Position numbers and translations under genes: made by a program
The notes under the pieces: model-generated
The model's input: the letters and a program-made list of their open reading frames with translations, nothing else
What the model was told of the DNA's origin: nothing
Databases searched by the model: none
Assembly: GCA_947591215.1 (NCBI GenBank)
Contig: CANQCZ010000005.1
Coordinates: 1,630 to 65,629 of the forward strand
Direction of reading: 5' to 3'
Length of the DNA: 64,000 nucleotides
Source of the DNA: an uncultured Bacilli bacterium
GTDB lineage: Bacteria > Bacillota_I > Bacilli_A > RFN20 > CAG-449
Shown here: piece after piece, positions 10,040 to 40,530 of the stretch
Numbering within the stretch: the stretch's first letter is position 1
How the letters are laid out: every line of letters begins with the position of its first letter

Positions 10040-10294
10040 ATGAACGCTATTGAAGTCGTATTTACCTGTCTAAAAGAAAAGAATACTACACAAGAACAGT
10101 TAGCACATCTTTTAGGTTACAAATCTCAATCAGGGCTCGCTAATCGTTTAAGAGGTAATAGTTTAAGAGTAGATACTTTAGTTAAAATTCTTACAGGTCT
10201 TGGCTATACCTTAGTTGTTAAACCTTATACATTCGCTGATAAAGAAAAAGAAAACTATCATATCATTACTAATGATGAGGTAACCGAAGAATGA
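10040..10294 (+). CDS. Small HTH (XRE/Cro-like) DNA-binding protein
   Basis: QEQLAHLLGYKSQSGLANRL helix-turn-helix pattern. The stop overlaps the recombinase start. Confidence 0.5.
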   Translation: MNAIEVVFTCLKEKNTTQEQLAHLLGYKSQSGLANRLRGNSLRVDTLVKILTGLGYTLVVKPYTFADKEKENYHIITNDEVTEE

Positions 10295-10887
10295 TTTACG
10301 GATATTGTCGAGTTTCTACCAAAGGGCAAGCTTTATATGGAAACTCCCTCGAAGAGCAAAAGCAACAAATACTTTTTCAATATCCTAATGCTGAAATCAT
10401 TGTAGAAGCCTACACCGCTTATAAAGACAAACGACCATTATTTGATGAACTTATCTCTAAAGCGGTTGAGGGTGACATCATTGTTGTTACCAAACTAGAT
10501 CGATTTTGTAGAAGTGTAACTAAAGGTGTTCCAACTTTGAATGAGTTATACTCCAAAGGTGTAAAGCTTCATATCTTAAATATGGGAATTATTGAGAACA
10601 CACCTATTGGTAATTTGCTTTTTAACGTTCTACAGTCTTTCGCTCAATTTGAAAGAGATATGATCGTAGAACGTACCACTAACGGAAAAGAAATTGCTCG
10701 TATGAATCCTAATTACAAAGAGGGTAAACCTAGACTTGAAATTGATAGCGAATTATTTGAAAAGTTATATTATAAATGGAAGTCAAAAAATATTACCGCT
10801 GTTGAAGCAATGTCTCAGTTAGGACTCAAACCAAATACTTTTTATCGTCGTGTAGGTGATTTTGAACGAATGCGAGGTATAATGTAA
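10291..10887 (+). CDS. Small serine recombinase (resolvase/invertase family)
   Basis: N-terminal catalytic motif YGYCRVSTKGQ. Size 198 aa. C-terminal HTH-like tail. Confidence 0.85.
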   Translation: MIYGYCRVSTKGQALYGNSLEEQKQQILFQYPNAEIIVEAYTAYKDKRPLFDELISKAVEGDIIVVTKLDRFCRSVTKGVPTLNELYSKGVKLHILNMGIIENTPIGNLLFNVLQSFAQFERDMIVERTTNGKEIARMNPNYKEGKPRLEIDSELFEKLYYKWKSKNITAVEAMSQLGLKPNTFYRRVGDFERMRGIM

Positions 10888-24418: not shown

Positions 24419-26014
24419 ATGAATGATATTATTAGAGAACTTACAATAGACGTATCAAAAGAAAATATTTTCTCAGCTATCTTAGCTAAACAATATGATA
24501 AAAATACTCGTTATATTTTAGCTACAATTACTAATCTAGGTAAAAAAATTGACGTGGATAGAAATAGTACAGTTATTATTAATTTTAGACGTCCTGATAA
24601 AGAATCTCATTCGTTTATCGGATCTGTTGAAGAAGATGGAAGAGTAAAAGTTCCTATTCCATATTGGGCGCTCGAAATAAATGGAGCAGTAACTGCGGAT
24701 ATTTCAATGTGTATGGCAGACGAAAGATTAACTACATTAAGGTTTATTATTCAAGTTGAAGAGGCGACGTTTAATGGGGCTACACCTATTATTACAACTT
24801 CAAAAATATATGGTGTTTCAGGTATCGGCAATGAAAATCCTGTTTTAACACGTACTAATGACGCTGTAGGTGTTTCTTTATCAGTTACGGAACGTGATAT
24901 TTACAAAGAGTGTGTTGCCAATGATGTTGATTTTCAAAAATTTTTCGACTTTCCACAATACACCGATGAATTAGGCAATGTTTTCATCACAATTACACCA
25001 AAGTCATTTAAGATTGATTTCACTAATGACGGGGAAATTACTGCTATTAGCGTTAAAGAGTATGAACGTGGCGATGAAAATCTTGGTTTCTTTGTTCACC
25101 CATTCTTTAAAAAATGGACATCTGAAACTACATATAATGGTGTTGTATCGAGAGATATTGCTAAATATTTGTCATCGGCTTACGACAAAGTCAATGGCGA
25201 GGTATTTGAGGGTAGTATTAGTGAATCAAATAAAAATAATATAGTAGTTAGATCCGTACCAAATGAAGATTATACTAAATCTTCTGCTTCTTGGGAGCTT
25301 GGAAGAGAAGTTATTAAAAACACGAACGAATCATACGGAATTATGTCATGGTTATTTATTGATTTGTTTAGAACATTATGTCTCATTTATTTTGCAAGAA
25401 CCGATTTAAATAATTTATTTCATATTGAATTTGAATATAGTGATGACGAATACTCGAGACAGTACGATCCTCTTGAACACGGAACTACAACGGGTGCAAC
25501 AGATGATATCGATTCTCACACAGGATATAATACTGAAACACACCAATTTAAAATTTTTAATATTGATGACGCACTTGCCTGTATAACAGTAGATGGTTGC
25601 TACCAAACAAAAGATGGATTTTATTATTCATATTTATTTGATTTTGACGCTTCTAAAGATGTTGGAGCACATAAATCAATGTTATCAACAAAAGTAACAA
25701 GTTATGATGGCGAATACGATATTATTACTAAAATGAGTTATGACATCGACGAACCCGCATTTAAAGTTGCGACAGCTATGCGTCATGCAACCAACACTAA
25801 TCCTGTTGATAGTGTGCAAAATATTTACTATTCTGCTAAACACAAACTTTACATAATAGAAGACGATTCACGCGGACAGTTATATTCTTTTGCTTGGTCT
25901 AACTATGACGTATACCCTGATTGGGGGGTCTTCTTCTCGTTTTGGGATAGCGGGTTCGTCTACTGTTGGGACAACGACAGCAACGCCGTCCGCCTTTGCA
26001 AATCACCTTTTTAA
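24419..26014 (+). CDS. DGR target protein 1: distal tail fiber / receptor-binding protein with a C-terminal variable C-type-lectin-like region
   Basis: C-terminus ...DWGVFFSFWDSGFVYCWDNDSNAVRLCKSPF. The 3' 80 nt make up VR1, which matches TR. Confidence 0.7.
   Translation: MNDIIRELTIDVSKENIFSAILAKQYDKNTRYILATITNLGKKIDVDRNSTVIINFRRPDKESHSFIGSVEEDGRVKVPIPYWALEINGAVTADISMCMADERLTTLRFIIQVEEATFNGATPIITTSKIYGVSGIGNENPVLTRTNDAVGVSLSVTERDIYKECVANDVDFQKFFDFPQYTDELGNVFITITPKSFKIDFTNDGEITAISVKEYERGDENLGFFVHPFFKKWTSETTYNGVVSRDIAKYLSSAYDKVNGEVFEGSISESNKNNIVVRSVPNEDYTKSSASWELGREVIKNTNESYGIMSWLFIDLFRTLCLIYFARTDLNNLFHIEFEYSDDEYSRQYDPLEHGTTTGATDDIDSHTGYNTETHQFKIFNIDDALACITVDGCYQTKDGFYYSYLFDFDASKDVGAHKSMLSTKVTSYDGEYDIITKMSYDIDEPAFKVATAMRHATNTNPVDSVQNIYYSAKHKLYIIEDDSRGQLYSFAWSNYDVYPDWGVFFSFWDSGFVYCWDNDSNAVRLCKSPF
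25924..26003 (+). repeat. DGR variable repeat VR1
   Basis: Aligns base-for-base with 26121-26200. About 10 mismatches, all where TR has A. The 3' end ctttgcaaa is shared with VR2 and differs from TR (atctgctaa), consistent with IMH versus IMH*. A GC hairpin taaggggtgtcccctta lies at 26024-26040. Confidence 0.8.
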
Positions 26015-26120
26015 CGGGGTTGGTAAGGGGTGTCCCCTTACTATTACAAAACCCGTAGGGTCGCGCTATAATAAAAATAGGGATTATATTGCCCTGACGT
26101 GTGGTTTGGCTCTGTTTCTC

Positions 26121-26200
26121 TTGGGTCTTCTTCTCGAATTGGAATAACAGGTTCAACAACTGTTGGAACAACGACAACAACGCCGTCCGCATCTGCTAAT
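26121..26200 (+). repeat. DGR template repeat (TR)
   Basis: Non-coding copy of the VR sequence, rich in adenines, between the target gene and the RT. Confidence 0.8.
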
Positions 26201-26322
26201 AGATGTATTAAAAATTATGCAATATAATTCCTTACCTCTTGGTAAAAAGTAAATTCATAAAAGGCGTTGGCTAGTAGTGAAATATCGAACATCAACGAAG
26301 AATTAGCAAAGGAGTTGAAGTA

Positions 26323-27342
26323 ATGAAAACAATTAAAAACCTTTATAGTAATTTACTCTCAAAAGAGAAAATAAAATTAATTCTTTTAAAGAGTATCAAA
26401 GGCAAACCGTATGCTTTGAAAATTCAAAACAATGTTGACGAATATGTTAACCTTACTTATGAACATTTAGTAAATGAAACATACGACTTAAAGCCTGTAA
26501 AAAAAGTTATAATTCATGATAGAAAAAAAGATCGTGAAATAACGAAAAGTCCTTATTATCCTAATAAAATTTTTGATTATTTAATTGTCAGTCAATTAGA
26601 AAGCATGATAACAAAATCAATGTTTCATTGGTGTATTGGTAATGTTAAAGGACGTGGAAAAGATATCGGGCTATCTTACTTAGAAAAACACATGAAAAAT
26701 TACAAGTATGCTTTAAAACTCGATATTAAAAAATTCTATGATAACATAGATAAAAAAATCTTACTGAATCTTTTGTCAAAAAGAGTTCATGACAAAAAAT
26801 TTCTCAATTTTTATAGTAAGGTCGTCGGTCAAGATGGAAAAGGACTTGACTTAGGGCTTAATTCAAGTCAATGGCTTTCCAATTTTTATCTTCAAGGATT
26901 AGATTATTATATCAAACAAACATTAAAAGCTAAAATATACGTCCGATATGTAGACGATATGATAATTTTAGGAAACAACAAGCGCCGTCTTCATTATTAT
27001 ATAAGAGCGATTCAAGATTATTTATACAAAAATTTAGGATTACGGCTAAAAGAGAATTATCAGCTGTTAAACCTCACTAAAAACGATCAAATAGAATTTT
27101 TAGGATATAAGTTAACACCAAAAGAAACCACTCTTATTAAGCCATTGTTTTATCGTTTCGTGAGGTTATATAAGAGAATGGGTGATAAGTCTAAAAGACG
27201 TGCTAAAACTCTTGTATCATTGTGGGGTTGGTTTAAACGATCTACTTATTCTTATGTTTATTATAAAAAGTATCTTGAGCCAATTATACCATTTAAAAAT
27301 ATAAGAATGTTATTACAAAAAAGGAGGAAAAAATTAGCATGA
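26323..27342 (+). CDS. DGR reverse transcriptase
   Basis: RT motifs, including YVRYVDDMIILG (YxDD box). Size 339 aa. Immediately downstream of TR. Confidence 0.85.
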   Translation: MKTIKNLYSNLLSKEKIKLILLKSIKGKPYALKIQNNVDEYVNLTYEHLVNETYDLKPVKKVIIHDRKKDREITKSPYYPNKIFDYLIVSQLESMITKSMFHWCIGNVKGRGKDIGLSYLEKHMKNYKYALKLDIKKFYDNIDKKILLNLLSKRVHDKKFLNFYSKVVGQDGKGLDLGLNSSQWLSNFYLQGLDYYIKQTLKAKIYVRYVDDMIILGNNKRRLHYYIRAIQDYLYKNLGLRLKENYQLLNLTKNDQIEFLGYKLTPKETTLIKPLFYRFVRLYKRMGDKSKRRAKTLVSLWGWFKRSTYSYVYYKKYLEPIIPFKNIRMLLQKRRKKLA

Positions 27343-27969: not shown

Positions 27970-28296
27970 TTGGTGTCGAAATTATCATCAACACCTGTTT
28001 CAGATCATGACAGCATAATTCAACTCGATGGTGAAATTAAATCGATTAAACGACGTGTAAGTGCGATAGAAAAACAAATAGCCGTAACTCAAGACTTAAC
28101 ATTATCAGTCAATAAACTTGCCACTAATATGGATAATATGCTTAAAGAACAAGTAAAACAGGGTGAACGGTTAGATAAAATGGAACGTGCACCAATAGAA
28201 GAGGCAAAATATTACAAACGACAAATTATCAGTTGTATTATTACATCAATCGTTGGAGCGATTGTCGGGGCAATCTTATGTTTAATTTTAAAATAA
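27970..28296 (+). CDS. XhlA-like lysis-associated membrane protein
   Basis: N-terminal coiled coil plus a single C-terminal TM segment (IISCIITSIVGAIVGAILCLIL). RBS AGGAGG. Confidence 0.4.
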   Translation: MVSKLSSTPVSDHDSIIQLDGEIKSIKRRVSAIEKQIAVTQDLTLSVNKLATNMDNMLKEQVKQGERLDKMERAPIEEAKYYKRQIISCIITSIVGAIVGAILCLILK

Positions 28297-28308
28297 GGAG
28301 GAACCCAC

Positions 28309-28695
28309 ATGAAAGAAATATTATTATATATTGTCGAGGGATTAATTTCTGTTTTATTAACCGTCATTACAGCTTATCTCATTCCATACTTAATAAATAA
28401 GTATTCAAATGATAAAAACAAAAAAATGCTTCTTGCACTTAATGATGTTATATCAAATGGTGTAAAAAATATTTATCAAACGTTTGTTCAAGAAATAAAA
28501 GGAACAGATAAATGGACTAAAGAAACGCAAGAAGAAGCGTTAAAAAAATGCTATTTATTTATTCAAGAGAATTTAACAGAAGATCTAAAAAATTGGTTGA
28601 ACAAATACTCTAACGACATAGAAGCATTTATCAAAGGTCTTATTGAAGCAGAAATTTATTCTCTTAAAGCAATTAATTCAAAGACTGTAGCTTAG
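28309..28695 (+). CDS. Holin
   Basis: 128 aa with an N-terminal TM (LLYIVEGLISVLLTVITAYLIPYLI) and a charged C-terminus. RBS AGGAGG. Sits at the end of the phage late operon. Confidence 0.5.
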   Translation: MKEILLYIVEGLISVLLTVITAYLIPYLINKYSNDKNKKMLLALNDVISNGVKNIYQTFVQEIKGTDKWTKETQEEALKKCYLFIQENLTEDLKNWLNKYSNDIEAFIKGLIEAEIYSLKAINSKTVA

Positions 28696-29483
28696 CGACG
28701 AATTATTATTCCTAATGTTAAATACTTAAAAATATAAAGGGGTTCGTATAAATTATCAAATGCCCCGCCAGGAAATAGAATCTCGTTCTATTATAAGAAA
28801 TAATAGAGCGATTTTTTATTTTTATAGCACTTTCGTGGTAGTTCGTTAACTTTGTAGACCATAGAATTTTTTGGGAATTTATCAAATTAATAATTTTAAA
28901 GTTTTTTAATTAAAAAAATAGGCTTTGTTTTTGTAAAGTGATAGTTTAGGGTCATATAGAGTTTGAACCCTATCGTGTATTATGGGTTTGAACTTTTTAA
29001 GATAAAAAATATCTACCAAAATTGAACTTTGATAGATGATTTTTTCTATTTAAGCATGAATGACAATCCTAAATTCACATGTAAATATTGTGGCTCTTTC
29101 CTTATAAGTAATTGTTCCTTTAAATAAAGATATGTTTGTTTCGTTTAACAGGTATCATTTTAGAAAATAGATCTCGAAAAGAAATGTCGAACAAATCATT
29201 AATATTTTTGCTTTGTTTAATGATAGAAACATATGTCGAGGGGTTATCTATTATAGAAGAATTAACGTTTTGTGTTTGGATTTTTGATAATTCTCTCATT
29301 AGTTCTTTAACTTTAAGGATGATGCTTTATTTTATTACTAAAGAAAATACACTTGTGTGTTCTTCCAATATTATACTTTTTAATATGTTCAAGAGGTTCT
29401 TTGAGTTTTATTGACAAATTTAACGTATATGTTAATATTTTTAGCGGTACTAAAAATCAAATTATCGGATGGAGGGTTTTGGT

Positions 29484-30923
29484 ATGAGAATTGATTTAAA
29501 AAATTATGATAAGGAAACTGAATTTAAAGAAATAATTGATGAGTATATTTTTCCATTATTAGGAATGAAAGGAGATAATATTCAAAAAATTCCTGATAAA
29601 GATAGTTTCTTTAAAAATACGCATAATGAAATTATTTTTTTTGAGAAACAAAAAATTTATTTTTTACCATATAAAAATTCGAAATGGGGATATTTTATTG
29701 ATACAGTGAAATGTATGAATAATTTTAATTTTACATTATGCAGGAAAGTATTAGCAAAATTAGTTTCGGTTGCCAATAATAATTTAAAGATTGGCACTCA
29801 AAAAAATTTTAAGTATATAAACGAGCAGCAGTGCATTTCTAGCTATGAAGTTGCGGTTCAAACTTCAATATGTGAATACTTAACAAACAATAATTCAGCT
29901 GATAAAAATGATACTATGAAAACTTTGCTGAATTTATTAGACAAATTACAAAAGTGGGCTTTAAAAACATATGAAGGAAAAAAAGTTCCTTTTGGTTTTG
30001 TAATTGATATGAAGGAAATCTCTAAAACAAAATTAAACTATTTGGAATTTTTGGGCGATGAATTTTCGGCTACTATTTCTGATGGTATTTCTTCAGTAGT
30101 AGTTATTGATAAATATGGTAATTATCTTGATTATAAATCTATTGTAGAAAATAATAAAATTAAAGCTTGTCAGTTGAATAATTGTTTGCCTATTCGTTTT
30201 GCTCAAATAATAAATGAAAATGTAAGCGAAAATTCATTAAGAATAGGTGTTTTTCTTTTGACAGGCGGAGATATTTTCATCGCAAAAAATGGCAAAATAG
30301 ATTTAATAAAACGTAATGGTAGGTGGGCTAATTTTTCTTACCAAAGCTTTTTAAATGTTATGGAAAGATATAATAATACTGAGGATATTGATAAACAAAT
30401 TTTGATGGAAGTTTTTTCGAGTGCTATTGATGTATCATTATCTCATTGTGGTGGAATTATCGCGATAGTAAAGGATGGAATGGAATTGAAGAATTCAGAA
30501 ATGGAATCGAAGGATGCAGAAAAAGAAAATATTCTTAGCGAGTGTGATAATCTTCTTGTTTCTAAGAATGATGATGAGCTTAAAGATGCACTTAGCAAAA
30601 AAGAAAATGAATATAATATTAATAAACGGCTTTATAAAAGAAATATGATTAAAAATTTATTAAATGGTAAGAAATTATTTATAAATATAGATAGAAAATT
30701 GAGAGCTGAATTAATTGGTTTAGATGGTGCAACAATTATTCAAAAAGATGGTTCGGTTGTTGCGTTCGGTGCTATTATTCAAAATGAAAAAGGATCAACC
30801 GGTGGAGGAAGAGGAGCGGCAGCTAAATTGTTATCTAGATATGGCGGTTTTGCAATCAAAATTTCAACAGATGGTTACATTGAAGTATATATGAATAGGG
30901 AATTGAAATATTATATTAAATGA
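29484..30923 (+). CDS. Uncharacterised 479-aa protein whose C-terminal region has degenerate DAC (DisA_N)-like motifs
   Basis: RBS GGAGGG 7 nt before the ATG at 29484. C-terminal GLDGATIIQKDGSVVAFGAII...GSTGGGRGAAAKLL resembles the DGA...GTRHRAA core of diadenylate cyclases, but the RHR motif is not conserved. Two upstream degenerate copies of the DG-x-hhI-x-DG hairpin motif. Confidence 0.3.
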   Translation: MRIDLKNYDKETEFKEIIDEYIFPLLGMKGDNIQKIPDKDSFFKNTHNEIIFFEKQKIYFLPYKNSKWGYFIDTVKCMNNFNFTLCRKVLAKLVSVANNNLKIGTQKNFKYINEQQCISSYEVAVQTSICEYLTNNNSADKNDTMKTLLNLLDKLQKWALKTYEGKKVPFGFVIDMKEISKTKLNYLEFLGDEFSATISDGISSVVVIDKYGNYLDYKSIVENNKIKACQLNNCLPIRFAQIINENVSENSLRIGVFLLTGGDIFIAKNGKIDLIKRNGRWANFSYQSFLNVMERYNNTEDIDKQILMEVFSSAIDVSLSHCGGIIAIVKDGMELKNSEMESKDAEKENILSECDNLLVSKNDDELKDALSKKENEYNINKRLYKRNMIKNLLNGKKLFINIDRKLRAELIGLDGATIIQKDGSVVAFGAIIQNEKGSTGGGRGAAAKLLSRYGGFAIKISTDGYIEVYMNRELKYYIK

Positions 30924-30976
30924 AAACACACATGTATTGCTTTGTAATATATTGCATATAATATTGATGAAAACAT

Positions 30977-31005
30977 TTGACGTATATCTTTATTTGTGCT
31001 ACAAT
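30977..31005 (+). promoter_or_regulatory. Sigma-A-type promoter: TTGACG, 17-nt spacer, TACAAT
   Basis: Hexamers read directly at 30977-30982 and 31000-31005. No ORF downstream. Confidence 0.5.
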
Positions 31006-31011
31006 GTTTTC

Positions 31012-31140
31012 ACTTGAAAGGTGATATAACATCGCGTGTTAATATCAGATTAGCTGTTAATCGTTTGATTAATAGTTAAGTACAACAAATAAGTATTATT
31101 TGTTAAAAAGCCCGGGTCCAATTGGAACTTGGCTTTTTTT
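31012..31140 (+). ncRNA. Candidate small non-coding RNA, about 130 nt, between the promoter and a T-rich terminator
   Basis: Promoter at 30977-31005. Imperfect hairpin aagcccgggtccaattggaacttggctt, then T7 at 31134-31140. No ORF longer than 6 codons. Confidence 0.3.
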
Positions 31141-31527
31141 ATTGCGCGATTTGTGTAAAATATTTTTTGTAATTCTTGCGATGATTTTGAAAAAAGAATA
31201 GAAAAAGTATCCAAAAAATTAGCACAACAAGAATTTGATGCTATTAAAATGCCGATTATAAGGAAAGTCTCACTGGAAATATTGTAAACAATACATTGAG
31301 AGTAGATGGTAAAAGGATGCGTAATTCAAACATATTTGATTTATTAAAACAAAAAAATAAAAAATATCCATTGGCTTTTAAATTGCAACCCTAGACTCTT
31401 GATGAAATTATAGAATAGCAACTTATTATTGGTAAAGGCAAGTTGTTATGTAATGAATCTAAATGATGAACCATTTGGAATGATAAAAAAGAGAGACATT
31501 GAAGCATTTGAGATTGATAAGAAAAAA

Positions 31528-32523
31528 TTATTTAACAGAAATTTTATTATATGCTTTATTGGCAAAGTAATAATAATTCTTTAATGAATTAATTATTTTA
31601 TTTGGAGATAGTACGATTGCGTGTTCGCCAAAACGTCTAAAGTATTGTTCTACTTGAGCGTATGAGCAAGAGAAGTAATAAATATCTCCCTCGATTTTAG
31701 AACATTGAGGACGATATAAATATATTCTTTTAAACAGTTCTTTTCCTGTTGGAGTTAGTTGTACTTTTATTTCTTCGTTTTCATAAGGTTTAATTGAATA
31801 TTGAATTCCATATTTTATTTGCTTATTAAATATCTCTTCTTGATGAGGTAAAATTTCTCTTTTACTTGTAAGCAAAATGACATCTTTTATTTTGGCTAAA
31901 CGAACTGTATGTAATATTCCGTTTTCAGCGACAAAAAGACCATAGTTAAATAATTCATCTTTAGATGAAGAAATCGTGTAAAGAGAAGCTTCATTAATTA
32001 CTGCTCCAGAAGTTAAAGATAAATATACTTTCACATTACTATCTATTGATTTAGATAATAATGCATAGTTTTGTTTAAAGATTATCCTTTCTCTTTCTGG
32101 TTGGACTTTAGAAGCGTATGAAGTGAATAATCTTCTAAAGTAAGAAGAGATTGATTCGGTTTTTACAAAGTTATTTAAAATAAAATAAATTGCTTTTGAT
32201 GAGATCTTTGTTGGCTTAAATAAGAAAGAAACCGATTTATTACTTTGATCAACAGATGAATTCTTTTTATCAATTACTTTTACTAGTTTATGATATACTT
32301 CTTCCTTTTCTTCATCAGAAATATTTTTTATCACGCTAAAAACATCTAATCTAAATTTATCATCGAGTGCGGAGAACTCTTCATAATAATTATTTATTAA
32401 TGTGTTAATGAATAAGTTTCTATTAAGATTATTTTCTCCCTTATAAAATAAAAAGTTTTCACAGTCTTTTAATAAAATATTGTATGTGTTTAAATCTAAA
32501 GTTACTTTAATTTTTTCTTCCAT
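31528..32523 (-). CDS. Putative WYL/WCX-domain regulator (BrxR/CapW-like C-terminal half)
   Basis: C-terminal GDIYYFSCSYAQVEQYFRRFGEHAIVLSPNKI resembles the WCX domain. The preceding ENGILHTVRLAKIKDVILL region resembles a WYL-type barrel. No clear N-terminal HTH. Confidence 0.35.
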   Translation of the reverse strand: MEEKIKVTLDLNTYNILLKDCENFLFYKGENNLNRNLFINTLINNYYEEFSALDDKFRLDVFSVIKNISDEEKEEVYHKLVKVIDKKNSSVDQSNKSVSFLFKPTKISSKAIYFILNNFVKTESISSYFRRLFTSYASKVQPERERIIFKQNYALLSKSIDSNVKVYLSLTSGAVINEASLYTISSSKDELFNYGLFVAENGILHTVRLAKIKDVILLTSKREILPHQEEIFNKQIKYGIQYSIKPYENEEIKVQLTPTGKELFKRIYLYRPQCSKIEGDIYYFSCSYAQVEQYFRRFGEHAIVLSPNKIINSLKNYYYFANKAYNKISVK

Positions 32524-32686
32524 AGTGTTAATCCTTATGAAAAGTGTATCAAAAAAGGGTACAAAAATTCAACGGAAATACATATATATTTAACTAGTTA
32601 TTTTTAGGGGTACGAAAAAAAATAAAAATTTGCTATCTATTATTAATAAAGTAACCCATTTATAATTTTGTTGTAAGGGCGAAGAG

Positions 32687-34861
32687 GTGAGCAAAATGAA
32701 AAAAGAGTTATTAATGAAATTATTATCAAAAGATTATTTGGTCTTAAATTTTTCTTCTAAAGTAAATTTTAATAGCCAATTAAATATTGATTTAATCAGT
32801 GCGATTGATCATTCTTTTAAATCGTTAGGTTTTAAGATTAAAGATGAAGAATTAATTAAATTAATATCTATATCTCGAGATGATTTAACATCTTTTTATC
32901 ATGATAACTATAAGTTATTATCTTCGTTTGTTGGAAATAGTGTTAAACATAAGATTTTCTACGCTAATTTTCCTGAGATATCCAATATACCAGAGAAAGA
33001 AATGTATACTCGTGCTTTTTTACATTATTTAACTGCATCGGAAAATGATGATGGTTTTATGTCTCAAGATATAAATGATTTTGAACGTGAAGAAGTTCAT
33101 TCTGATAACAAAGTAATCTTAAAACTTATTAACGAACAAGAAGCAAACAAAATCCTTATTGATTTAGTAAGGGATATGTTTGAATCGAAACAAGCGATAT
33201 CTTGTGATGAAACAAACTTTATCTTATCTTGCTTTCAAAATCTTTTTGATAAGGAAAGTTTATATTATTTGATTGATGATATTCCTTTTAAAGAGAATAT
33301 TGCTATCTATGTAAATACAATAAGAAAGCTATATCCTAATGAAACTAAATTGGGTGACATTTTCAATGAAAAAATTCTTTCTTTTATTAAAACTCCAACT
33401 GATTTACTAAGAGTGTATGCGATTATTTCAAATGGTGATTATACTTTAAATGATAATAGTATATTTATCTCACTTGATAGAAAGTGTCGTCGATTATTTT
33501 TAGCAATATTAAACAATATGTGCGCTAATAAAGATTATGTCTACGATGACTTTTCAAGACATGATTTTTTATGGAAAAAAGCATTTGAAAAACTTCATGT
33601 TGGTGAATATGAAAAACAATATCCTCATATCTATTTAGTATGTAAAAATATTAGAGAGGATAATTATTCTACATATTATTCGATGCTTGAAAAGAATAAG
33701 AATAATCAAGTGGGTTTGATATCATTATTACGTAAAAGACCAGGAGAATTTGCTCGTAGATTAGATATGCTTTTACGCAATGCATCTTTTGAAACTGAAT
33801 ATACACTTCAAGAGTTTGAAAAAATTGCTGATCAAGTATCCTCTAATGTTTTGTTACAATTATATACATTCTTTCAAAATAGAAATCTTTATTCTACTCG
33901 TATTTTTTGTATCAAAAAATTATACTATAACAGTTATATTGAAGTAGAGGATAAAAGAGATGATATTCCGGACTATACTATTGAAAGAATATGTGCAATA
34001 ATTCTTAATGCATTGAAAAATATTTATTCATCTTATCCTAGAATAGAAAATGTCTATTTAGACGAATCGATGAAAAATTATGCAATGCCTATGAATTCAC
34101 GTAATAAATCAACAGGAAATAAGACGCTTACTTTTGGTACGAGAATAAAATTAGATGAAGAAGACGGATCATTTATTCGTTTCTTTACTCATTGGAAAAA
34201 TATGAATGAAGGAAATGGTAAACGTGTTGATATTGATTTATCGGTTGAACTTGTAAATGAAGATTTTACATCTACAAGAAGTGTATCATGGCACGATTTA
34301 TTTGGTGGTAGAAAATTTGATACATACCATTCAGGTGATATTGTTACTGCACCAAATGGAGCAAGTGAATTCGTTGATTTAGATTACATTAGTGCAAGTA
34401 AATATTATCGTTATGGTGTGATTTGTAATTACGTTTTCACGGGACAAAATTTTTGTGATATACCAGAATGCTTTTCTGGCGTTATGTTTATGAAAAAGAA
34501 AGGGAAAAGAGGTGTAGTTTTTAATCCGGAATTTGTTAAGTATAAGTATGACTTAACCCAATATGGATCAAGTGAGAATATTGCTTTGGCAATCGATTTT
34601 AAAACTCGTGAACTTATTTGGATGGATATACCTCGTTCAAGTGGTAGAATGTATCAAATTGCAAGTGGTGATAGCGGAGTAGTTATTGCATTAAAAAATG
34701 CTTTAAAAAAGCAAATGAATATGTATGAATTTATTAAACTACATTCATCTCATTTAACCTTTGTAGATGATATATCACAAAGTGAGTTTATTATCTCTGA
34801 CAAAGAGAATGCGACATTGAAACCATATGATGTAGAAAAAATAACTGCATCATGGTTATAA
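32687..34861 (+). CDS. Large uncharacterised protein (724 aa) with a C-terminal TerD-like domain
   Basis: Residues from about 480 to 610 align block-wise with TerD (IRFFTHWKN / GKRVDIDLSVELV / VSWHDLFGG..YHSGDIVTAPNGASEFVDLDY / YRYGVICNYVFTG). The Ca-binding GDGDDE motif is degenerate (PNGASE). Confidence 0.45.
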   Translation: MSKMKKELLMKLLSKDYLVLNFSSKVNFNSQLNIDLISAIDHSFKSLGFKIKDEELIKLISISRDDLTSFYHDNYKLLSSFVGNSVKHKIFYANFPEISNIPEKEMYTRAFLHYLTASENDDGFMSQDINDFEREEVHSDNKVILKLINEQEANKILIDLVRDMFESKQAISCDETNFILSCFQNLFDKESLYYLIDDIPFKENIAIYVNTIRKLYPNETKLGDIFNEKILSFIKTPTDLLRVYAIISNGDYTLNDNSIFISLDRKCRRLFLAILNNMCANKDYVYDDFSRHDFLWKKAFEKLHVGEYEKQYPHIYLVCKNIREDNYSTYYSMLEKNKNNQVGLISLLRKRPGEFARRLDMLLRNASFETEYTLQEFEKIADQVSSNVLLQLYTFFQNRNLYSTRIFCIKKLYYNSYIEVEDKRDDIPDYTIERICAIILNALKNIYSSYPRIENVYLDESMKNYAMPMNSRNKSTGNKTLTFGTRIKLDEEDGSFIRFFTHWKNMNEGNGKRVDIDLSVELVNEDFTSTRSVSWHDLFGGRKFDTYHSGDIVTAPNGASEFVDLDYISASKYYRYGVICNYVFTGQNFCDIPECFSGVMFMKKKGKRGVVFNPEFVKYKYDLTQYGSSENIALAIDFKTRELIWMDIPRSSGRMYQIASGDSGVVIALKNALKKQMNMYEFIKLHSSHLTFVDDISQSEFIISDKENATLKPYDVEKITASWL

Positions 34862-35077
34862 AAAGCATTCAGGCTTAATGATCACTTACTTCTAATAAGC
34901 GAGAAAGCGAGAAATTAGTGACAAACTTTCCTGAATGCTTATAAACAAGGCTTATTATTACATACTTCTAGATTAACAAGAATGTCGAGCATTAGCTCGA
35001 CGCAGAATTGTAATAGACTTTCCTTGTTTTCTAATCACATTTTCTATTTTTTAGTGAACATATCGCTTGTTCATGCC

Positions 35078-35103
35078 GAGGAGCTACACTCCTCATTTTT
35101 TTT
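35078..35103 (+). terminator. Rho-independent terminator
   Basis: Stem gaggag, loop ctaca, stem ctcctc, then a T8 run. Confidence 0.65.
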
Positions 35104-35214
35104 AAAGTAATTTTTCAATCTATGTTTATACATAAACTAGTGGGACAAATTTAAATAACAAGCATTTTAAATATAGTAATTTAAGGTACATAGACAAAAT
35201 TTCTTTAATTGTTA

Positions 35215-35260
35215 AAAAAATTAACATCTTATTTGCAAAATTAACATTAGAATTGAAAAT
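35215..35260 (+). promoter_or_regulatory. Direct repeats AAAAATTAACAT-(N10)-AAATTAACATT upstream of the XRE-TM paralog
   Basis: The same repeat pair recurs at 38075-38120 at the same distance (about 83 nt) from the start of the paralogous gene. Confidence 0.45.
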
Positions 35261-35301
35261 ATATGAATTATAATTTGATTGAGATTGGGGGTGATCTTTA
35301 A

Positions 35302-36021
35302 ATGAAGTTTAATGAAAGGCTAAAAGCATTAAGAAAAACGCATAATTTAACACAAGTTGAACTTGCGAAAAGATTATATGTTAGTCGTTCACTGGTTGCA
35401 AGATGGGAATATGGCGATATTTATCCAACAATTGCTAATCTTAATAAAATTTCCGATTTTTTTAACATTCCCATGAGCGATATTTTGAGTGAAGATGAAA
35501 AAACCGAAATAATAGTTCGTCAGGCAAACTTAGAGAAAAAAATAAAAAATGGATTAAGAATCACTATGAATTTTGTTAATTTCGCTTTGTCTTTGCTTAT
35601 TTTATCAATCTTTTTTCCATTATTGCCGATATGGGGATACACTCATGAAATAATTACGAGCACGGAACCTTTATTAAAGATTACAATTACTGAACAAGAT
35701 TTATTTAGGGTTTTAAATGATACTTTTTATAATACTGGATTAAAAACAGCATACGTCTTTATCATGATTTTAGAAATTATTTCATTAATAATTTCTTTAT
35801 TTTCATTAGTAGTTTCATTCTTAAGAAAGAAACAAAAATTGAGTTGTTTTATATTTATGATAAGTTGTTCTATTAACATTATTCTTTCTTTGCTTATTTT
35901 TTCAAGTTTTATTGCAAAAAGGCCTTTAAATATTATTGGTGGTTTTTTCCTATTCTTATTAGTGTTATTAGCAATCATATCATCTATTTTTATTGCAAAA
36001 CAAAGGAAAGGAAATTTATAA
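35302..36021 (+). CDS. Membrane-anchored XRE-family HTH regulator (paralog 1)
   Basis: N-terminal HTH_3 pattern LKALRKTHNLTQVELAKRLYVSRSLVARWEYGD, then 4-5 hydrophobic TM segments. Confidence 0.6.
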   Translation: MKFNERLKALRKTHNLTQVELAKRLYVSRSLVARWEYGDIYPTIANLNKISDFFNIPMSDILSEDEKTEIIVRQANLEKKIKNGLRITMNFVNFALSLLILSIFFPLLPIWGYTHEIITSTEPLLKITITEQDLFRVLNDTFYNTGLKTAYVFIMILEIISLIISLFSLVVSFLRKKQKLSCFIFMISCSINIILSLLIFSSFIAKRPLNIIGGFFLFLLVLLAIISSIFIAKQRKGNL

Positions 36022-36400
36022 AGAATGCATAAAACAAATTTTTGTAAACTAATAATATATTAAAGCCGTTTTGAATTGTGTATTATTTGCGTTCTAGTTT
36101 TGGAAAATTGTTGTTATTCGCGTTCTTGTAAGACAGGAAAATTAGTTCGTTTAATTATTAAAAGTAGTAGAACGTTTTTTATTAAACATGAATGAAATTT
36201 AAACATTTTTGCTTGTTTTTAAAAGAAGGTAAGCTTTATGTAAAAAAGACAAAGAGGGTTAATGAAATTTTAATAATATTATGCATAAAATATTAATATA
36301 TCAATATCAAGATTCATATTATATTATAAATATTTTTATATAAATATTGATATTTATTTTAAAAATTAGTAAAATTCTTTTAGATAAAGGAGATAATTAT

Positions 36401-37855
36401 ATGTCATTGATTACAGAAGAAAATATATTAAATTTATTATATTCGTACAATTCATGGTGGAGAACAGGAATTGTACAAAAAGAATTTGATAAACCTATTA
36501 AAAGAATTTCTTTTTATGAGGCTCAAAAAAATTTTTGTAACAATGAAATCAGAAGAACAATTTTATTAAGTGGTGCTAGAAGAACTGGAAAAACAACAAT
36601 TATGTACCAAACAATTTCATCTTTAATTACAAAAGGAGTATCACCTAAAAATATTTTATTTATTTCATTTGACCATCAATTGTTAAAAATGTGCAGCATT
36701 CAAGATGTTTTAAATGTTTATGTTTCTAATGTTTCAACAGATAAAGAATTATATTGTTTTTTTGATGAAATACAATATTCTGATAATTGGAATAGTTGGC
36801 TCAAAATTTTATATGATACCAATCCAAATATAAAGATAATGGCTACTGGTTCCGCTAGCCCAATTTTGGAAGATAAAGTAAAAGAAAGTGGATTGGGTAG
36901 ATGGATAACGATACAAGTCCCTACACTATCTTTTTTCGAATATTGTGAATTATTGCACATTGAAAACCCAGAATTACCCAAAGGGATGAAACCTACTCAA
37001 TTATATTTGCTTACGCAACAAGAACAAACGGATATAATGAAAAAATTATCATTTCTACAATCTCATTTTATAAGATATTTACAAGTAGGTGGTTTCCCAG
37101 AACTTGCTTTATCAAGCGATGATATTTATGCTCAAAGAATACTTAGAGAAGATATTGTCGATAAAGCAATAAAAAGAGATTTGCCTGCAATTTATTCGAT
37201 AAGAAACATTAATGATATTGAAAAAGTATTTTTATATCTATGTTATAATTCATCTAATATTATAAATATTCAAGCGATTTGCAAAGAATTAGAGGTTAAT
37301 AGGATAACATTAGAAAAATACATAAAATATTTAGAAAGTGCAAATCTCATTTATATCAGTAAATTAATCAATATGAGTTCAAAACAAATACTAAAATCGC
37401 AGAATAAGATCTATATAGCCGATGCTGCGATAAGAAATGCAGTTTTAATGAAAGATGATATCACTAATGATCCTACTGAATTAGGAATTGTGGCAGAAAC
37501 TGCGGTTTACAAACATGTAAAAGCATTCAGTTATGATGGATTAGCGAATGTTGGATACTTTAGAGGTGGCGAAAAAAATAAAGAAATTGATATTGTTGTT
37601 AAATACCATCAAGCATTAACTCCTATTATGATTGAGGTTAAATATAGAGAAGATTCAAAAATCACAGATAAAGATTTAATTGTGGAATTTTCTGATGTTA
37701 AATTGCCAAATCTTGTAGTTACAAAGAAAATTGATGATTTTGGATTATTTAAATATAAAAACGGAAAGTCAATATATAAGATTCCCGCACCAGTATTTTT
37801 ATATCTTTTAGGTTATGTTGAAAGTAACAAGTTAAAAGAAAGCATGCATTTTTAA
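36401..37855 (+). CDS. AAA+ ATPase of the AAA_14/DUF4143 (COG1373) family
   Basis: RBS AGGAG, then ATG at 36401. Walker A LLSGARRTGKTT. Walker B CFFDEIQY. Confidence 0.7.
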   Translation: MSLITEENILNLLYSYNSWWRTGIVQKEFDKPIKRISFYEAQKNFCNNEIRRTILLSGARRTGKTTIMYQTISSLITKGVSPKNILFISFDHQLLKMCSIQDVLNVYVSNVSTDKELYCFFDEIQYSDNWNSWLKILYDTNPNIKIMATGSASPILEDKVKESGLGRWITIQVPTLSFFEYCELLHIENPELPKGMKPTQLYLLTQQEQTDIMKKLSFLQSHFIRYLQVGGFPELALSSDDIYAQRILREDIVDKAIKRDLPAIYSIRNINDIEKVFLYLCYNSSNIINIQAICKELEVNRITLEKYIKYLESANLIYISKLINMSSKQILKSQNKIYIADAAIRNAVLMKDDITNDPTELGIVAETAVYKHVKAFSYDGLANVGYFRGGEKNKEIDIVVKYHQALTPIMIEVKYREDSKITDKDLIVEFSDVKLPNLVVTKKIDDFGLFKYKNGKSIYKIPAPVFLYLLGYVESNKLKESMHF

Positions 37856-38074
37856 TAAAAAATGAAAGAAATTATGAAACTAAATAAGTTAAACGAATTG
37901 ACTTAATTCACAGATAGAATTAGAAAAATTTAGAAGTTATGCTTTAAATTTTGTTGCCAAAAATTTTAGCAAGTTTTACTTCAATTAACTTATGGCGATT
38001 TAAACTTTTTTGGTTAATGATTTTTAAAATTTAGCACTTTCGTGATAAATGAATTGAAATTTTTAATTGCCGAT

Positions 38075-38120
38075 AAAAAATTAACATTTAACTTCATAAA
38101 TTAACATTCTAGTATTAGGA
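38075..38120 (+). promoter_or_regulatory. Direct repeats AAAAATTAACAT-(N10)-AAATTAACATT, second copy
   Basis: Same motif pair as at 35215-35260. Confidence 0.45.
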
Positions 38121-38153
38121 TTAAGATTTATAATTTTCTTGTAAAAGGAGAGG

Positions 38154-38792
38154 TTGGCAATGAAGTTTAATGAAAAATTAAAATCATTAAGAAAAGAACA
38201 TAATCTTACTCAAGTTGAACTGGCGGAAAGTTTATATGTCAGTCGGTCACTGGTCGCAAGATGGGAATATGGCGATATTTATCCCACGATAGAGAATCTT
38301 AATAAAATATCATCTTATTTTGATATTCCGATAGGCAATCTATTATGCGAAGATGAAAAAACAGAAATAATAGTTCATCAAGTAAACTTGGAAAGAAAAA
38401 TAAAGAAAGTATTGAGAATATCATTGCTAACATTGATTATAGTTTATTCAATTGTCATGCCAATAGTATATTGTTTAAAGGTATTTTCCATTACCGGATT
38501 TGGCTATTTAGGAAACAATTATACAAGTAGCGAGATAGATTTTAATGTTTTTCATTATTCAGTTGTAGATTGTATTTTGCCTGAAGATTCATGGTTATTA
38601 GTCGTCTCACCATTGACAAATTTAGTATTAATTATTTTGGCTATTTTAGCTTTTAGTTTAAAAAGAAAAAGAATAAAAAATATTTTAATATTTGTTACCA
38701 CTATTTTATTTATTGTTTCATTGGTTTTTGTCATTTTGACATTTGTGCTTGGCACAAAGCATCCGATTGGAATTCTTCCAAAATTCATGTAA
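38154..38792 (+). CDS. Membrane-anchored XRE-family HTH regulator (paralog 2)
   Basis: The N-terminal 75 aa are about 80% identical to paralog 1. C-terminal TM segments. Confidence 0.6.
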   Translation: MAMKFNEKLKSLRKEHNLTQVELAESLYVSRSLVARWEYGDIYPTIENLNKISSYFDIPIGNLLCEDEKTEIIVHQVNLERKIKKVLRISLLTLIIVYSIVMPIVYCLKVFSITGFGYLGNNYTSSEIDFNVFHYSVVDCILPEDSWLLVVSPLTNLVLIILAILAFSLKRKRIKNILIFVTTILFIVSLVFVILTFVLGTKHPIGILPKFM

Positions 38793-39178
38793 GTAACAAG
38801 GAAAGTGATATTTATTTTTGAAGAAATAACTGAAAATAAATTAAAAAAGTTAAGTACATTATAAGTGAAATTGATGAGCAAACTTATATTTCCGTTAGTC
38901 CAAAGAATGTTATATATTAAGTTTTAACTTATACTTTTTAGTCACTTTAACAAGTTTTTTTAAATTAATCAGATAAAATTTATATAAATAAAACAAGTTG
39001 TCAAAATTCTTTATGATTAAAATTAAGGAAATTCAACACTTTGTTATTATCGTAAATAAAGAATTAACAATGTTACTGAAGCTTTAACGATGCTTTATCT
39101 TTGCTTATTGATATAATATTGACAAGAAAAATAACTGCGACATTTTTCTAAATATTATTAAAGGAAGGAGTAGCAAAG

Positions 39179-39787
39179 ATGAAATTTCCGGACAAATTAA
39201 AAAATTTACGAAAAGAGAAGGGATTGACACAAGAAGAATTGGCTTCTAAAATATTTGTCTCAAGAAGTCTAATTGCTAGGTACGAAAATGGAAGTGTTGT
39301 GCCGTCTAAAGAAAATCTAGAAAAATTATCTTTATTCTTTGATTTAAGACTTTCTGATTTCATCGATAAAGAAGATATTGTTGGATTAACATTATCACAA
39401 AATAAGACAGCTTTGATTATGGAAAGATTTTTTTCCATTTTAATCATCATAGTTAATGGATTATTTAGTTTTATATCATTGTTGCCGATTTTTAAACTTA
39501 AAAGATATTATTATTATGAAGGTAACTTAGTTCCGAATTTAGAGACAAAATTTTTTAGTTTTGTTCAAATAACGCTTCTAAATAACAATTCAATTGTCTT
39601 AATAACGATTATTTTTTGTGCAATAAACCTATGTCTAAGTATTGCATGCCTAGTAAAGCAGAATTTTAAACATCGAATTTGGATTAAAATGATTAATTAT
39701 GTATTGTTTGTTTTAATTTTATTTTTAATTTTCTTTTCTATAGTTTTTTCAGTAATATACCTAAATAACAATATTTATGATTATTAA
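39179..39787 (+). CDS. Membrane-anchored XRE-family HTH regulator (paralog 3, more divergent)
   Basis: LKNLRKEKGLTQEELASKIFVSRSLIARYENG HTH plus TM segments. Confidence 0.55.
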   Translation: MKFPDKLKNLRKEKGLTQEELASKIFVSRSLIARYENGSVVPSKENLEKLSLFFDLRLSDFIDKEDIVGLTLSQNKTALIMERFFSILIIIVNGLFSFISLLPIFKLKRYYYYEGNLVPNLETKFFSFVQITLLNNNSIVLITIIFCAINLCLSIACLVKQNFKHRIWIKMINYVLFVLILFLIFFSIVFSVIYLNNNIYDY

Positions 39788-40011
39788 CGATTTCATATAA
39801 AATGTAGAATATAACCGGAAATATTGTCGTTATATTCAAAATTTATCGGAGTATAACTCGATAAACTTCTTGATTATATGATTATTAAACAATAATAAGG
39901 ATTCGTAAAAAAGACTAAGAAACTTCTTTTAAAATTGCCTATATTTTAAACGATAAATAAGCTATCTAGTAAAAATTCTTTAACGATGATATAATCATTA
40001 ATGGTGAGAAA

Positions 40012-40530
40012 ATGAAAGAATTATTGATTGTCGTCGATTTTCAAAATGATTTTGTTGACGGGGCGTTAGGATTTCCTAAAGCCAGCGAAATCGAAGATTA
40101 CATTTTAGCTAGAATCAAAAAAGCGAGGGATGTTAAAGAAGATATTATCTTTACTTTGGATACACACGACAAAGATTATTTAAATACCGAAGAGGGAAAA
40201 AATCTTCCGTGTCCTCATTGCTTAAAAAACAGTAAAGGTCATGAATTATACGGAAAAGTTAAAGAGGTTCAAGATTTCGGTTTGGTATTTGAAAAAGATA
40301 CTTTTGGATCAAGAAAGCTTCTGGAATATTTGATTGAGCACCCATACGATAAAATTACGCTTTTGGGATTGGTTTCCAATATGTGTGTCTTTTCAAATGC
40401 GGTAATCGCCAAAACCGCGTGCCCCAATGCCCACATCTTGATTGATTCAAAAGGGAGTCGCTCTTTTGATGAAGACTTAGAAAATAAATGTTATGAAGTT
40501 GCCAAAGGTCTTCAAATTGAGATTATTTAA
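40012..40530 (+). CDS. Isochorismatase-family cysteine hydrolase (nicotinamidase PncA-like)
   Basis: VVDFQNDF N-terminal motif. Catalytic Cys context LLGLVSNMCVF. Confidence 0.7.
   Translation: MKELLIVVDFQNDFVDGALGFPKASEIEDYILARIKKARDVKEDIIFTLDTHDKDYLNTEEGKNLPCPHCLKNSKGHELYGKVKEVQDFGLVFEKDTFGSRKLLEYLIEHPYDKITLLGLVSNMCVFSNAVIAKTACPNAHILIDSKGSRSFDEDLENKCYEVAKGLQIEII

Follow-up and report, generated by a model that had tools for sequence, protein, structure and literature searches.

What kind of protein carries a TerD-like domain far from any tellurite-resistance (Ter) operon, and does it act alone? The question is raised by a gene at 32696-34861 (forward strand) of a 64,000-nucleotide stretch of DNA from an uncultured Bacilli bacterium (GTDB lineage Bacillota_I; Bacilli_A; RFN20; CAG-449; GenBank assembly GCA_947591215.1, contig CANQCZ010000005.1, positions 1,630 to 65,629), the whole of which we call the window. 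A preliminary description of this DNA dwelt on the fusion of the TerD-like domain to a long N-terminal region, and it overlooked the most informative feature of the locus: a conserved structured RNA immediately downstream of the gene. Our analysis yields two results. It proposes a structural identity—a predicted solenoid plus a TerD-like domain with one retained metal site—for a family of more than 2,000 sequence clusters that has no Pfam model. The more important result is a conserved structured RNA outside Rfam that is mutually specific with the protein gene. By analogy with Ro60 and its Y RNAs, we consider it roughly an even bet (a probability of about 0.5) that the protein and this ~75-nt RNA make up a Ro60-like ribonucleoprotein, which is the best reading we have of the locus.

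A structured RNA linked to the gene

What lies beyond the stop codon? Two tandem copies of an RNA motif follow it on the forward strand, the first at 34864-34939 (70.9 bits and E 7e-15 with our first covariance model, R1) and the second at 34941-35031 (58.1 bits, E 2e-11), the latter with an extra GC-rich hairpin in its variable region (alignment A3). Further on, sequence inspection and folding point to a terminator-like hairpin followed by a T-run (35078-35094, forward strand), which would terminate a transcript of the gene and both RNA copies. The ~75-nt motif, which recurs at homologous loci as two to four tandem copies, has two helices, and its consensus reads P1 (ending GG:CC), GGCUUA, P2, CUUMCUUCUA, a variable region, UAG-P2', ACUYUCC, and P1'. 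Copy 1 accordingly runs from an 11-bp closing helix P1 through GGCUUA, P2, UUACUUCUA, a variable loop, UAG-P2', and ACUUUCC to P1', and the blocks GGCU / CUUCCUUCU / UAG / CUYUCC are invariant. The pyrimidine-rich tail at the 3' end of Bacillota 16S rRNA (which we take to be ...CACCUCCUUUCUA) is similar to the invariant loop CUUCCUUCUA, a likeness that may be coincidence.

Both folding and covariation show that this motif is a real structured RNA. Relative to shuffled sequences, the 440 nt 3' of the stop codon fold with a z score of -3.7 and the first 240 nt of them with one of -6.7; the intergenic region upstream of the gene (32524-32695) has no unusual RNA structure (z 0.19). Across 21 copies, 81.7% of the cells in paired columns form a pair, versus 58% in shuffles, and 13 of the 16 pairs show compensatory double changes. 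The covariation score of the same copies is 0.55, as against 0.16 in shuffles (0/500) and 0.09-0.17 in slid registers, and RNAalifold independently predicts both helices. The corresponding values for 100 distinct bacterial copies are 89% versus 64% pairing and a score of 0.65 versus 0.18, in an alignment fitted to the model, which inflates the counts. Rfam 15 contains no match to the motif at E≤1 in positions 28600-40100 of the window, nor any over the copies in four of the other collected loci (L038, L052, L171, and L159; L-numbers label these loci throughout).

How tightly is the RNA tied to the gene? In covariance-model searches, ~95% of 151 loci have the motif next to the gene, without exception on the strand that encodes the protein, and the pair spans Bacillota, Pseudomonadota, Bacteroidota, Cyanobacteria, Actinomycetota, and many large phages. 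R1, which was built from this clade alone and searched against 2.6 Mb, already gave 272 matches at E≤1, none of which is on the strand opposite the gene. Of the 147 matches with E≤0.01, 137 fell within 600 nt of one or other end of the gene, a zone that makes up 7.7% of the searched sequence. A second-generation model then recovered 45 of the 51 apparently negative loci, including those of Pseudomonas, Achromobacter, Lysobacter, and many phages. The 20 RNA matches scored as inside the gene lie upstream of the start defined by tblastn, the ORF (open reading frame) caller having over-extended those starts. The association also holds in reverse: a search of 2.9 million viral contigs with the RNA pattern alone returned 27 stretches, in 22 of which the gene lies no more than 367 nt away and in the same orientation. 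The linkage is thus near-universal, strand-specific, and reciprocal.

Could the motif instead be a cis-regulatory element of the gene—a tandem leader or trailer through whose binding the protein regulates its own gene, or a sensor of the riboswitch kind—and not a stable partner RNA? This is the main rival explanation, and we judge it unlikely, if still the most serious competitor. The RNA lies 5' of the gene in most bacteria: typically there are two tandem copies on the gene's strand, and the gap between them and the start codon is ~70-110 nt, just where a 5' leader would be expected. Certain riboswitches, too, are known to have aptamers in tandem. However, in the present clade the RNA lies 3' of the gene, and phages have it on one side or the other, or on both: all copies are 3' of the stop codon in 25 loci (including the window), and in nine loci copies flank the gene. 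L003, L012, and L015 have an opposite-strand gene as the next one downstream, so the RNA is not simply a leader, and in the window the terminator separates it from the next gene. Copy number, moreover, varies from one to five, and the phage copies sit amid tRNA genes and tRNA mimics. The 3' location and the opposite-strand genes argue against a cis element, although autoregulatory binding remains compatible with them.

Architecture of the protein and its family

Where does the protein begin, and how is it built? The uninterrupted ORF extends over 32687-34861 (forward strand), from which the preliminary description derived a 724-aa protein beginning at 32687. The GTG at that position falls within the ribosome-binding site GAAGAGGTGA (32681-32690); the ATG at 32696, 6 nt 3' of AGGTG, gives 721 aa, the length of a 100%-identical database protein (P0001; P-numbers denote database homologs). 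The true start is thus ATG 32696, and the coding sequence including the stop codon is 32696-34861. An AlphaFold2 (AF2) model of the whole protein, built from the family alignment (mean predicted local distance difference test score, pLDDT, 88.6; predicted template-modelling score, pTM, 0.87), divides it into an N-terminal alpha-helical solenoid (aa 1-398, 32696-33889), an alpha/beta linker subdomain (aa 399-477, 33890-34126), a TerD-like beta-sandwich (aa ~478-655, 34127-34660), and a C-terminal alpha/beta tail (aa 656-721 plus the stop codon, 34661-34861), all on the forward strand. We found no enzyme fold in the protein.

The block-wise resemblance to TerD that had been noticed by eye is real and beyond chance. 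In an alignment of 38 family sequences (A1), the best-conserved part comprises RFFTHWKN, RVDIDLS, YHSGDITSAPxGASEFIDxD, RY..., and PECFxG; the C-terminal ...WL is conserved as well. Profile comparison with hhalign matches family residues 470-660 to TerZ, TerA, TerD, and TerE of a genuine ter operon on a Klebsiella plasmid (probability 94%, P 1.2e-7, 137 collinear columns) and pairs the blocks named in the preliminary description collinearly with them. The AF2 model likewise matches the TerD-family crystal and NMR structures 3ibz (E 1e-6), 2qng, 2kxt, and 2qz7 in a Foldseek search of the Protein Data Bank (PDB), all at probability 1.00 with a template-modelling score, normalized to the target, of 0.54-0.67; the best match was 9a6r_B (E 2e-7, probability 1.0), which we take to be a Bacillus subtilis TerD-family protein. 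Stand-alone phage TerD proteins match the domain in a structural search of BFVD. Together these results show, at the level of models, a TerD-type beta-sandwich fold at aa ~478-655. The module is therefore TerD-like as proposed, but it does not form the extreme C-terminus, since a 65-aa alpha/beta tail follows it. The profile evidence is divided: the hhalign match stands, whereas Pfam TerD (PF02342) stays below threshold in 38 of 38 members, reaching at best E 0.049 in a single member and giving no match for the target; otherwise the member-by-member Pfam scan produced stray matches only. Plain Pfam and PDB sequence hidden Markov model (HMM) searches of the target returned nothing useful, and the domain has gone unannotated because such searches are blind to it.

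Has the domain lost its calcium sites? For Klebsiella pneumoniae TerD, the acidic residues of the Ca1 site are given as D40, D42, D78, and E89 (PMC8779313, citing Pan et al. 2011). In the hhalign register these align with D512 (34229-34231), D514 (34235-34237), D548 (34337-34339), and E558 (34367-34369, all forward strand), which are invariant across the 38-sequence alignment and make up a predicted single metal site; the metal-site motifs are retained in 276 of 280 collected members. The Ca2-site loop GDN(R/L)TG(E/A)GDGDDE (GEGDGDD) is not retained, and GDITSAPxGASE (ITSAPxGAS) stands in its place, with the position of G82 deleted and D88 replaced by S, A, or C. The earlier remark on the loss of the canonical Ca-binding GDGDDE is thus half right as regards calcium binding, because only the Ca2 loop is gone and the Ca1-position residues are kept. 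As far as conserved residues show, one TerD-type divalent-metal site has been kept.

The N-terminal region of ~480 aa, previously set down as unknown, is in large part a confidently modelled alpha-solenoid: aa 1-398 modelled alone by AF2 are all-helical with a pLDDT of 91. Its invariant residues in A1 are D236, R239, R265, H301, R354, D357, R361, and R396. Against the PDB the N-terminal model finds weak, generic solenoids only, while BFVD returns a phage protein labelled as containing a TROVE domain (probability 1.0, E 1e-3, 370 columns, with the aligned residues not reported) and, weakly, a Ro-like protein of a Gordonia phage. The solenoid is possibly TROVE-like, which is a lead and not established homology.

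How unusual is this architecture? When an HMM is searched exhaustively, the family numbers 2,303 cluster representatives (at 50% identity) if the cut-off is E≤1e-30 and 4,137 if it is E≤1e-3; almost all are ~700 aa long and match end to end, and about 200 full-length homologs of ~700 aa reach down to ~30% identity, and almost none carries a Pfam annotation. A single conserved peptide pattern retrieves 276 species genomes from many phyla and 202 viral contigs. With at least 2,300 clusters of the same architecture, the TerD fusion—which had been called unusual—is a fixed arrangement in a very large family and is merely unannotated. Additions to it are rare. A RING insert occupies the loop at aa ~114-139 in 3 of 280 full-length relatives (P0118, L129, and L153) and in no others, and these three align end to end with the family. 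One homolog carries Pfam Prok-RING_4, and further rare fusions consist of ankyrin repeats. The accessory RING and ankyrin modules indicate that the accessory parts are protein-interaction domains.

Phage and chromosomal settings

In what company does the gene travel? Among 80 viral loci, a tRNA gene lies within 8 kb in 47 and within 2 kb in 36. The viral loci represent 51 lineages; 34 of these are on contigs of at least 100 kb, and 19 of the 34 have a tRNA within 2 kb, versus ~4 expected even if every phage had a 15-kb tRNA array (P<5e-6), while 267 of 269 tRNAs share the gene's orientation. Recurrent phage neighbours include Thg1-like proteins, a CCA-adding-type nucleotidyltransferase, cREC, a phosphoesterase, NAD-salvage enzymes, UvrD helicases, and homing endonucleases. 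Several cultured large phages have the family gene (Weasels2, LpeD, Xoo-sp13, SCTP-2, RcXuper, WXIN, and RpAliso), labelled there as hypothetical or "cytoplasmic"; in Weasels2, a phage of Rhodococcus erythropolis, it is gp266, which sits between tRNAs of an array and near RtcB, and the interval between gp266 and gp265 is taken up by three copies of the RNA motif. Cultivable bacteria with the gene include Paenibacillus amylolyticus, Bacillus toyonensis, and Pseudomonas chlororaphis. In the viral locus L159, 3' of the gene (10151-10782), copies of the new motif (10151-10236, 10240-10328, and 10560-10650) alternate with sub-threshold YrlA-like tRNA mimics (10364-10470 and 10680-10782, the latter at 51 bits, below the Rfam gathering score of 69).

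In the window itself, the gene lies in a low-GC block (25-28% versus 32-41%), with a prophage upstream (terminase, portal, capsid, tail fibre, diversity-generating retroelement, and holins) and host genes from ~40 kb. We considered whether the block is prophage cargo and rejected this, as L008 and L009 keep the order of WYL gene, family gene, RNA, and host genes without the prophage. Since these related strains have the block beside the same host genes, it is best seen as a chromosomal island at a prophage junction. Upstream of the WYL gene the only sequence that L008 and L009 have in common with the window is 83 bp (29004-29086), which probably marks the prophage/host junction. Two genes 3' of the target, the island encodes an ATPase with AAA_14 and DUF4143 domains (36347-37855) that matches the PADLOC candidate PDC-S01 (E 3e-62). 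Scattered through the island are three paralogs (35302-36021, 38154-38792, and 39179-39787), in each of which an N-terminal HTH_3 (Cro/C1-type) domain precedes a hydrophobic, apparently membrane-spanning C-terminal half. A strain-specific 484-aa ORF (29469-30923) has no match in Pfam, PHROG, PADLOC, or NCBIfam.

Does the gene have a protein partner? Divergently transcribed from it on the reverse strand is a gene for a 331-aa WYL-domain protein (31528-32523; PADLOC WYL, 1e-5), whose family is recognizable from PF13280 or from the NCBI designation "WYL domain-containing protein." A WYL gene adjoins the target homolog in 8 of 8 clade loci with enough flank, and also in L003 (in the other orientation) and L170 (42%/37% identity). 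The partner is clade-specific: it is not found in more distant relatives, L012 and L015 have a different neighbour of ~320 aa, and no protein partner shared family-wide was found in the collected loci. Judging from gene order, the WYL protein is likely the regulator of the gene in the gut-Bacilli clade. The divergent intergenic region (32524-32695) contains, besides the ribosome-binding site, a direct repeat GGGTAC(A/G)AAAA at 32557-32567 and 32608-32618, 51 nt apart, which is a candidate operator. A distant WYL homolog in L169 (35%; 3191-6026) is divergent not from a TerD-fusion gene but from one for a 486-aa protein with DUF2828 and DUF7788, and hhalign shows no similarity between that protein and the target.

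A second rival explanation places the protein on a mobile island as an effector of anti-phage defence or of the stress response under WYL control; the TerD-like domain would sense a metal or nucleotide-like signal, the solenoid would recruit protein targets, and the RNA would be incidental. The low-GC island at a prophage junction with its PDC-S01 ATPase is consistent with this, as are the conserved WYL partner, the surroundings of L003 (AbiEii, recombinases, and a giant helicase), and accessory fusions (ankyrin and RING) that are protein-interaction modules; Ter systems and TerD, too, have been discussed as signal sensors in phage resistance (PMC7824862; PMC7159879). Against it, none of the PADLOC models matches the protein (0 families in PADLOC-DB 2.0), most bacterial copies lie in ordinary chromosomal contexts with no defence theme, and the gene is carried by lytic large phages. 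An incidental RNA would also leave the ~95% linkage and its reciprocity unexplained. We therefore hold a defence effector to be somewhat less probable again than a cis-regulatory element.

Other observations concern neighbouring genes. In Pseudomonas sp. 286 (L028, 3666-12368), the family gene is flanked on both sides by ToxA_N proteins of ~1,030-1,050 aa (dermonecrotic-toxin N-terminal domain, E 1e-55), a flanking that recurs in L033, L034, L061, and L066. In the diversity-generating retroelement of the window's prophage (24419-27342), a BppU_N tail-protein gene (24419-26014) carries the variable repeat (25926-26003) at its 3' end; the template repeat (26123-26200) is 83% identical to that repeat, and the differences appear to coincide with template adenines; the Rfam RT-18 RNA (26233-26314) and then a reverse transcriptase gene (26323-27342) follow. 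The prophage also encodes a C5 cytosine methyltransferase (2055-3617) and, on the opposite strand, an FtsK/SpoIIIE-type ATPase (7348-8553). No endolysin was recognised after its two holin-like ORFs (27970-28695).

Comparison with Ro60, Ter proteins, and RING-bearing relatives

What might the protein and RNA do together? The Y RNAs of bacteria and phages are encoded close to Ro60 genes and in the same orientation, and a mutually specific, co-oriented, and adjacent gene and RNA is the pattern by which Y RNAs were assigned to Ro60 (PMC4201824). This linkage pattern, together with the solenoid-plus-metal-domain architecture and the phage tRNA-repair setting, makes a Ro60-like ribonucleoprotein the best-supported reading. 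The gene product would then be a nonenzymatic, Ro60-like RNA-binding scaffold of solenoid and TerD-like domain, with the latter standing in for the metal-binding vWA domain of Ro60. Its partner, in place of Y RNA, would be the ~75-nt RNA found in two tandem copies after the stop codon, both of which would probably be transcribed together with the gene, as far as the terminator (35078-35094), and be released by processing. Such a particle would act on RNA; its most likely task would be the surveillance or repair of tRNA under stress or in phage-host conflict, and in the gut-Bacilli clade its expression would probably be under the control of the divergent WYL-domain regulator. What we infer from these patterns is the physical contact of protein and RNA, a role for the metal, regulation through the WYL protein, and the function in the cell.

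Several observations weigh against a Ro60-like particle. No Ro60 structure is present among the top PDB Foldseek matches of the N-terminal model, and Pfam TROVE has no match in 38 of 38 members, so that TROVE-likeness enters the argument only as the lead described above. The protein is mildly acidic (pI ~5.9; family median 6.2) and not overtly basic, and charge thus lends no support for nucleic-acid binding in the target or its family. On the RNA side, the motif differs from YrlA-type Y RNA, sits in most bacteria where a cis-regulatory leader would, and has inflated pairing counts in alignments A4 and A5, which were fitted to the covariance model. As for the setting, tRNAs are near only 3 of 80 loci in bacterial genomes, and the bacterial genomes examined have no RNA-repair neighbourhood at all.

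A broader proposal is that the pair constitutes a widespread new ribonucleoprotein, joining a Ro60-analogous protein to a new RNA class, that would serve in phages in tRNA or RNA surveillance during conflict (alongside Thg1, CCA-adding enzyme, RtcB, and cREC) and in bacteria as a stand-alone, sometimes WYL-regulated module. We advance it tentatively, with less assurance than the Ro60-like particle itself. A search of the literature found no description of the RING-less majority of the family, or of its Ca1-type site, its WYL partner in gut Bacilli, its cognate RNA, or its place within the tRNA arrays of phages.

How does the protein compare with better-known relatives? It shares with TerD, TerE, TerZ, and TerA (PF02342; 2kxt, 3ibz) the beta-sandwich, the collinear blocks (W, DxDxS, HSGD, and E), and the acidic residues at the Ca1 position, and one phage homolog is automatically named "Putative tellurium resistant like protein." That the protein belongs to the Ter system in the conventional sense and works like TerD or TerE is nevertheless very improbable. 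The domain is embedded in 721 aa, of which it makes up a quarter, it has lost the Ca2 loop GDGDDE, and it is sub-threshold for Pfam TerD. As the preliminary description had observed of TerB and TerC, there is no ter operon nearby: terB, terC, telA, terY, and the biosynthetic Ter genes are missing from the window and from all 160 related loci, and it is largely this context that refutes the Ter-system reading.

The closest annotated model is NCBIfam NF041916 (MXAN_6230/SCO0854 family RING domain-containing protein, with PF14447 Prok-RING_4), whose solenoid and TerD-like core aligns with the target at E 1e-76. That the target is itself a prokaryotic RING-type E3-like protein of this family, as the alignment and the one homolog with Prok-RING_4 might suggest, is the least probable reading of all and is refuted for the target, because its insert loop at aa ~114-139 has no Cys/His cluster (and no Cys at all), the RING insert is equally absent from 277 of 280 full-length relatives, and the score of 258.7 bits is far under the curated cut-off of 600 bits. 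From its sequence, the family is a RING-less sister of NF041916, and the RING-less form is far commoner among the collected relatives. Burroughs, Iyer, and Aravind are said to have described in 2011 a combination of RING, alpha-helical/ROT/TROVE-like, and TerD parts, with a suggested RNA-processing role. Our literature searches on SCO0854, MXAN_6230, and Ro60 with TerD found nothing relevant, and they returned no report of a cognate RNA for either the RING-less or the RING-bearing form. Among phage families, phrog_33734 is a full-length match (E 2.6e-48); the entry has no functional annotation, and the target copy is instead bacterial and paired with a WYL regulator.

The nearest functional parallel would be Ro60 (Rsr) with its Y RNAs (YrlA/Yrn1). 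Both systems combine an alpha-helical repeat scaffold with a divalent-metal-binding domain (here a predicted site), and both have small structured RNAs beside the gene, on the same strand and often in tandem (PMC4201824). Both, too, are found in large phages, where tRNA genes surround them and RNA repair of the RtcB type is close by—with YrlA-like mimics interspersed at L159—and one structural match, in BFVD, is TROVE-like. They differ in that the second domain of the target is TerD-like and not a vWA domain with a MIDAS (metal ion-dependent adhesion site) metal site, and in that the target, known here from sequence and models, has no Pfam TROVE signal and no Ro60 among its PDB matches. The new RNA, for its part, is shorter than Y RNA, with ~75 nt, two helices, its own invariant blocks, and no Rfam match. 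If the particle forms, it would be a second system of the Ro60/Y-RNA type in prokaryotes, the TerD fold would gain a role in a ribonucleoprotein, and the tRNA-centred arms race between phages and their hosts would have a new component. Cultured carriers, among them Paenibacillus, Bacillus, Pseudomonas, Rhodococcus phage Weasels2, and Xanthomonas phage Xoo-sp13, make this likeness to Ro60 and Y RNA directly testable.

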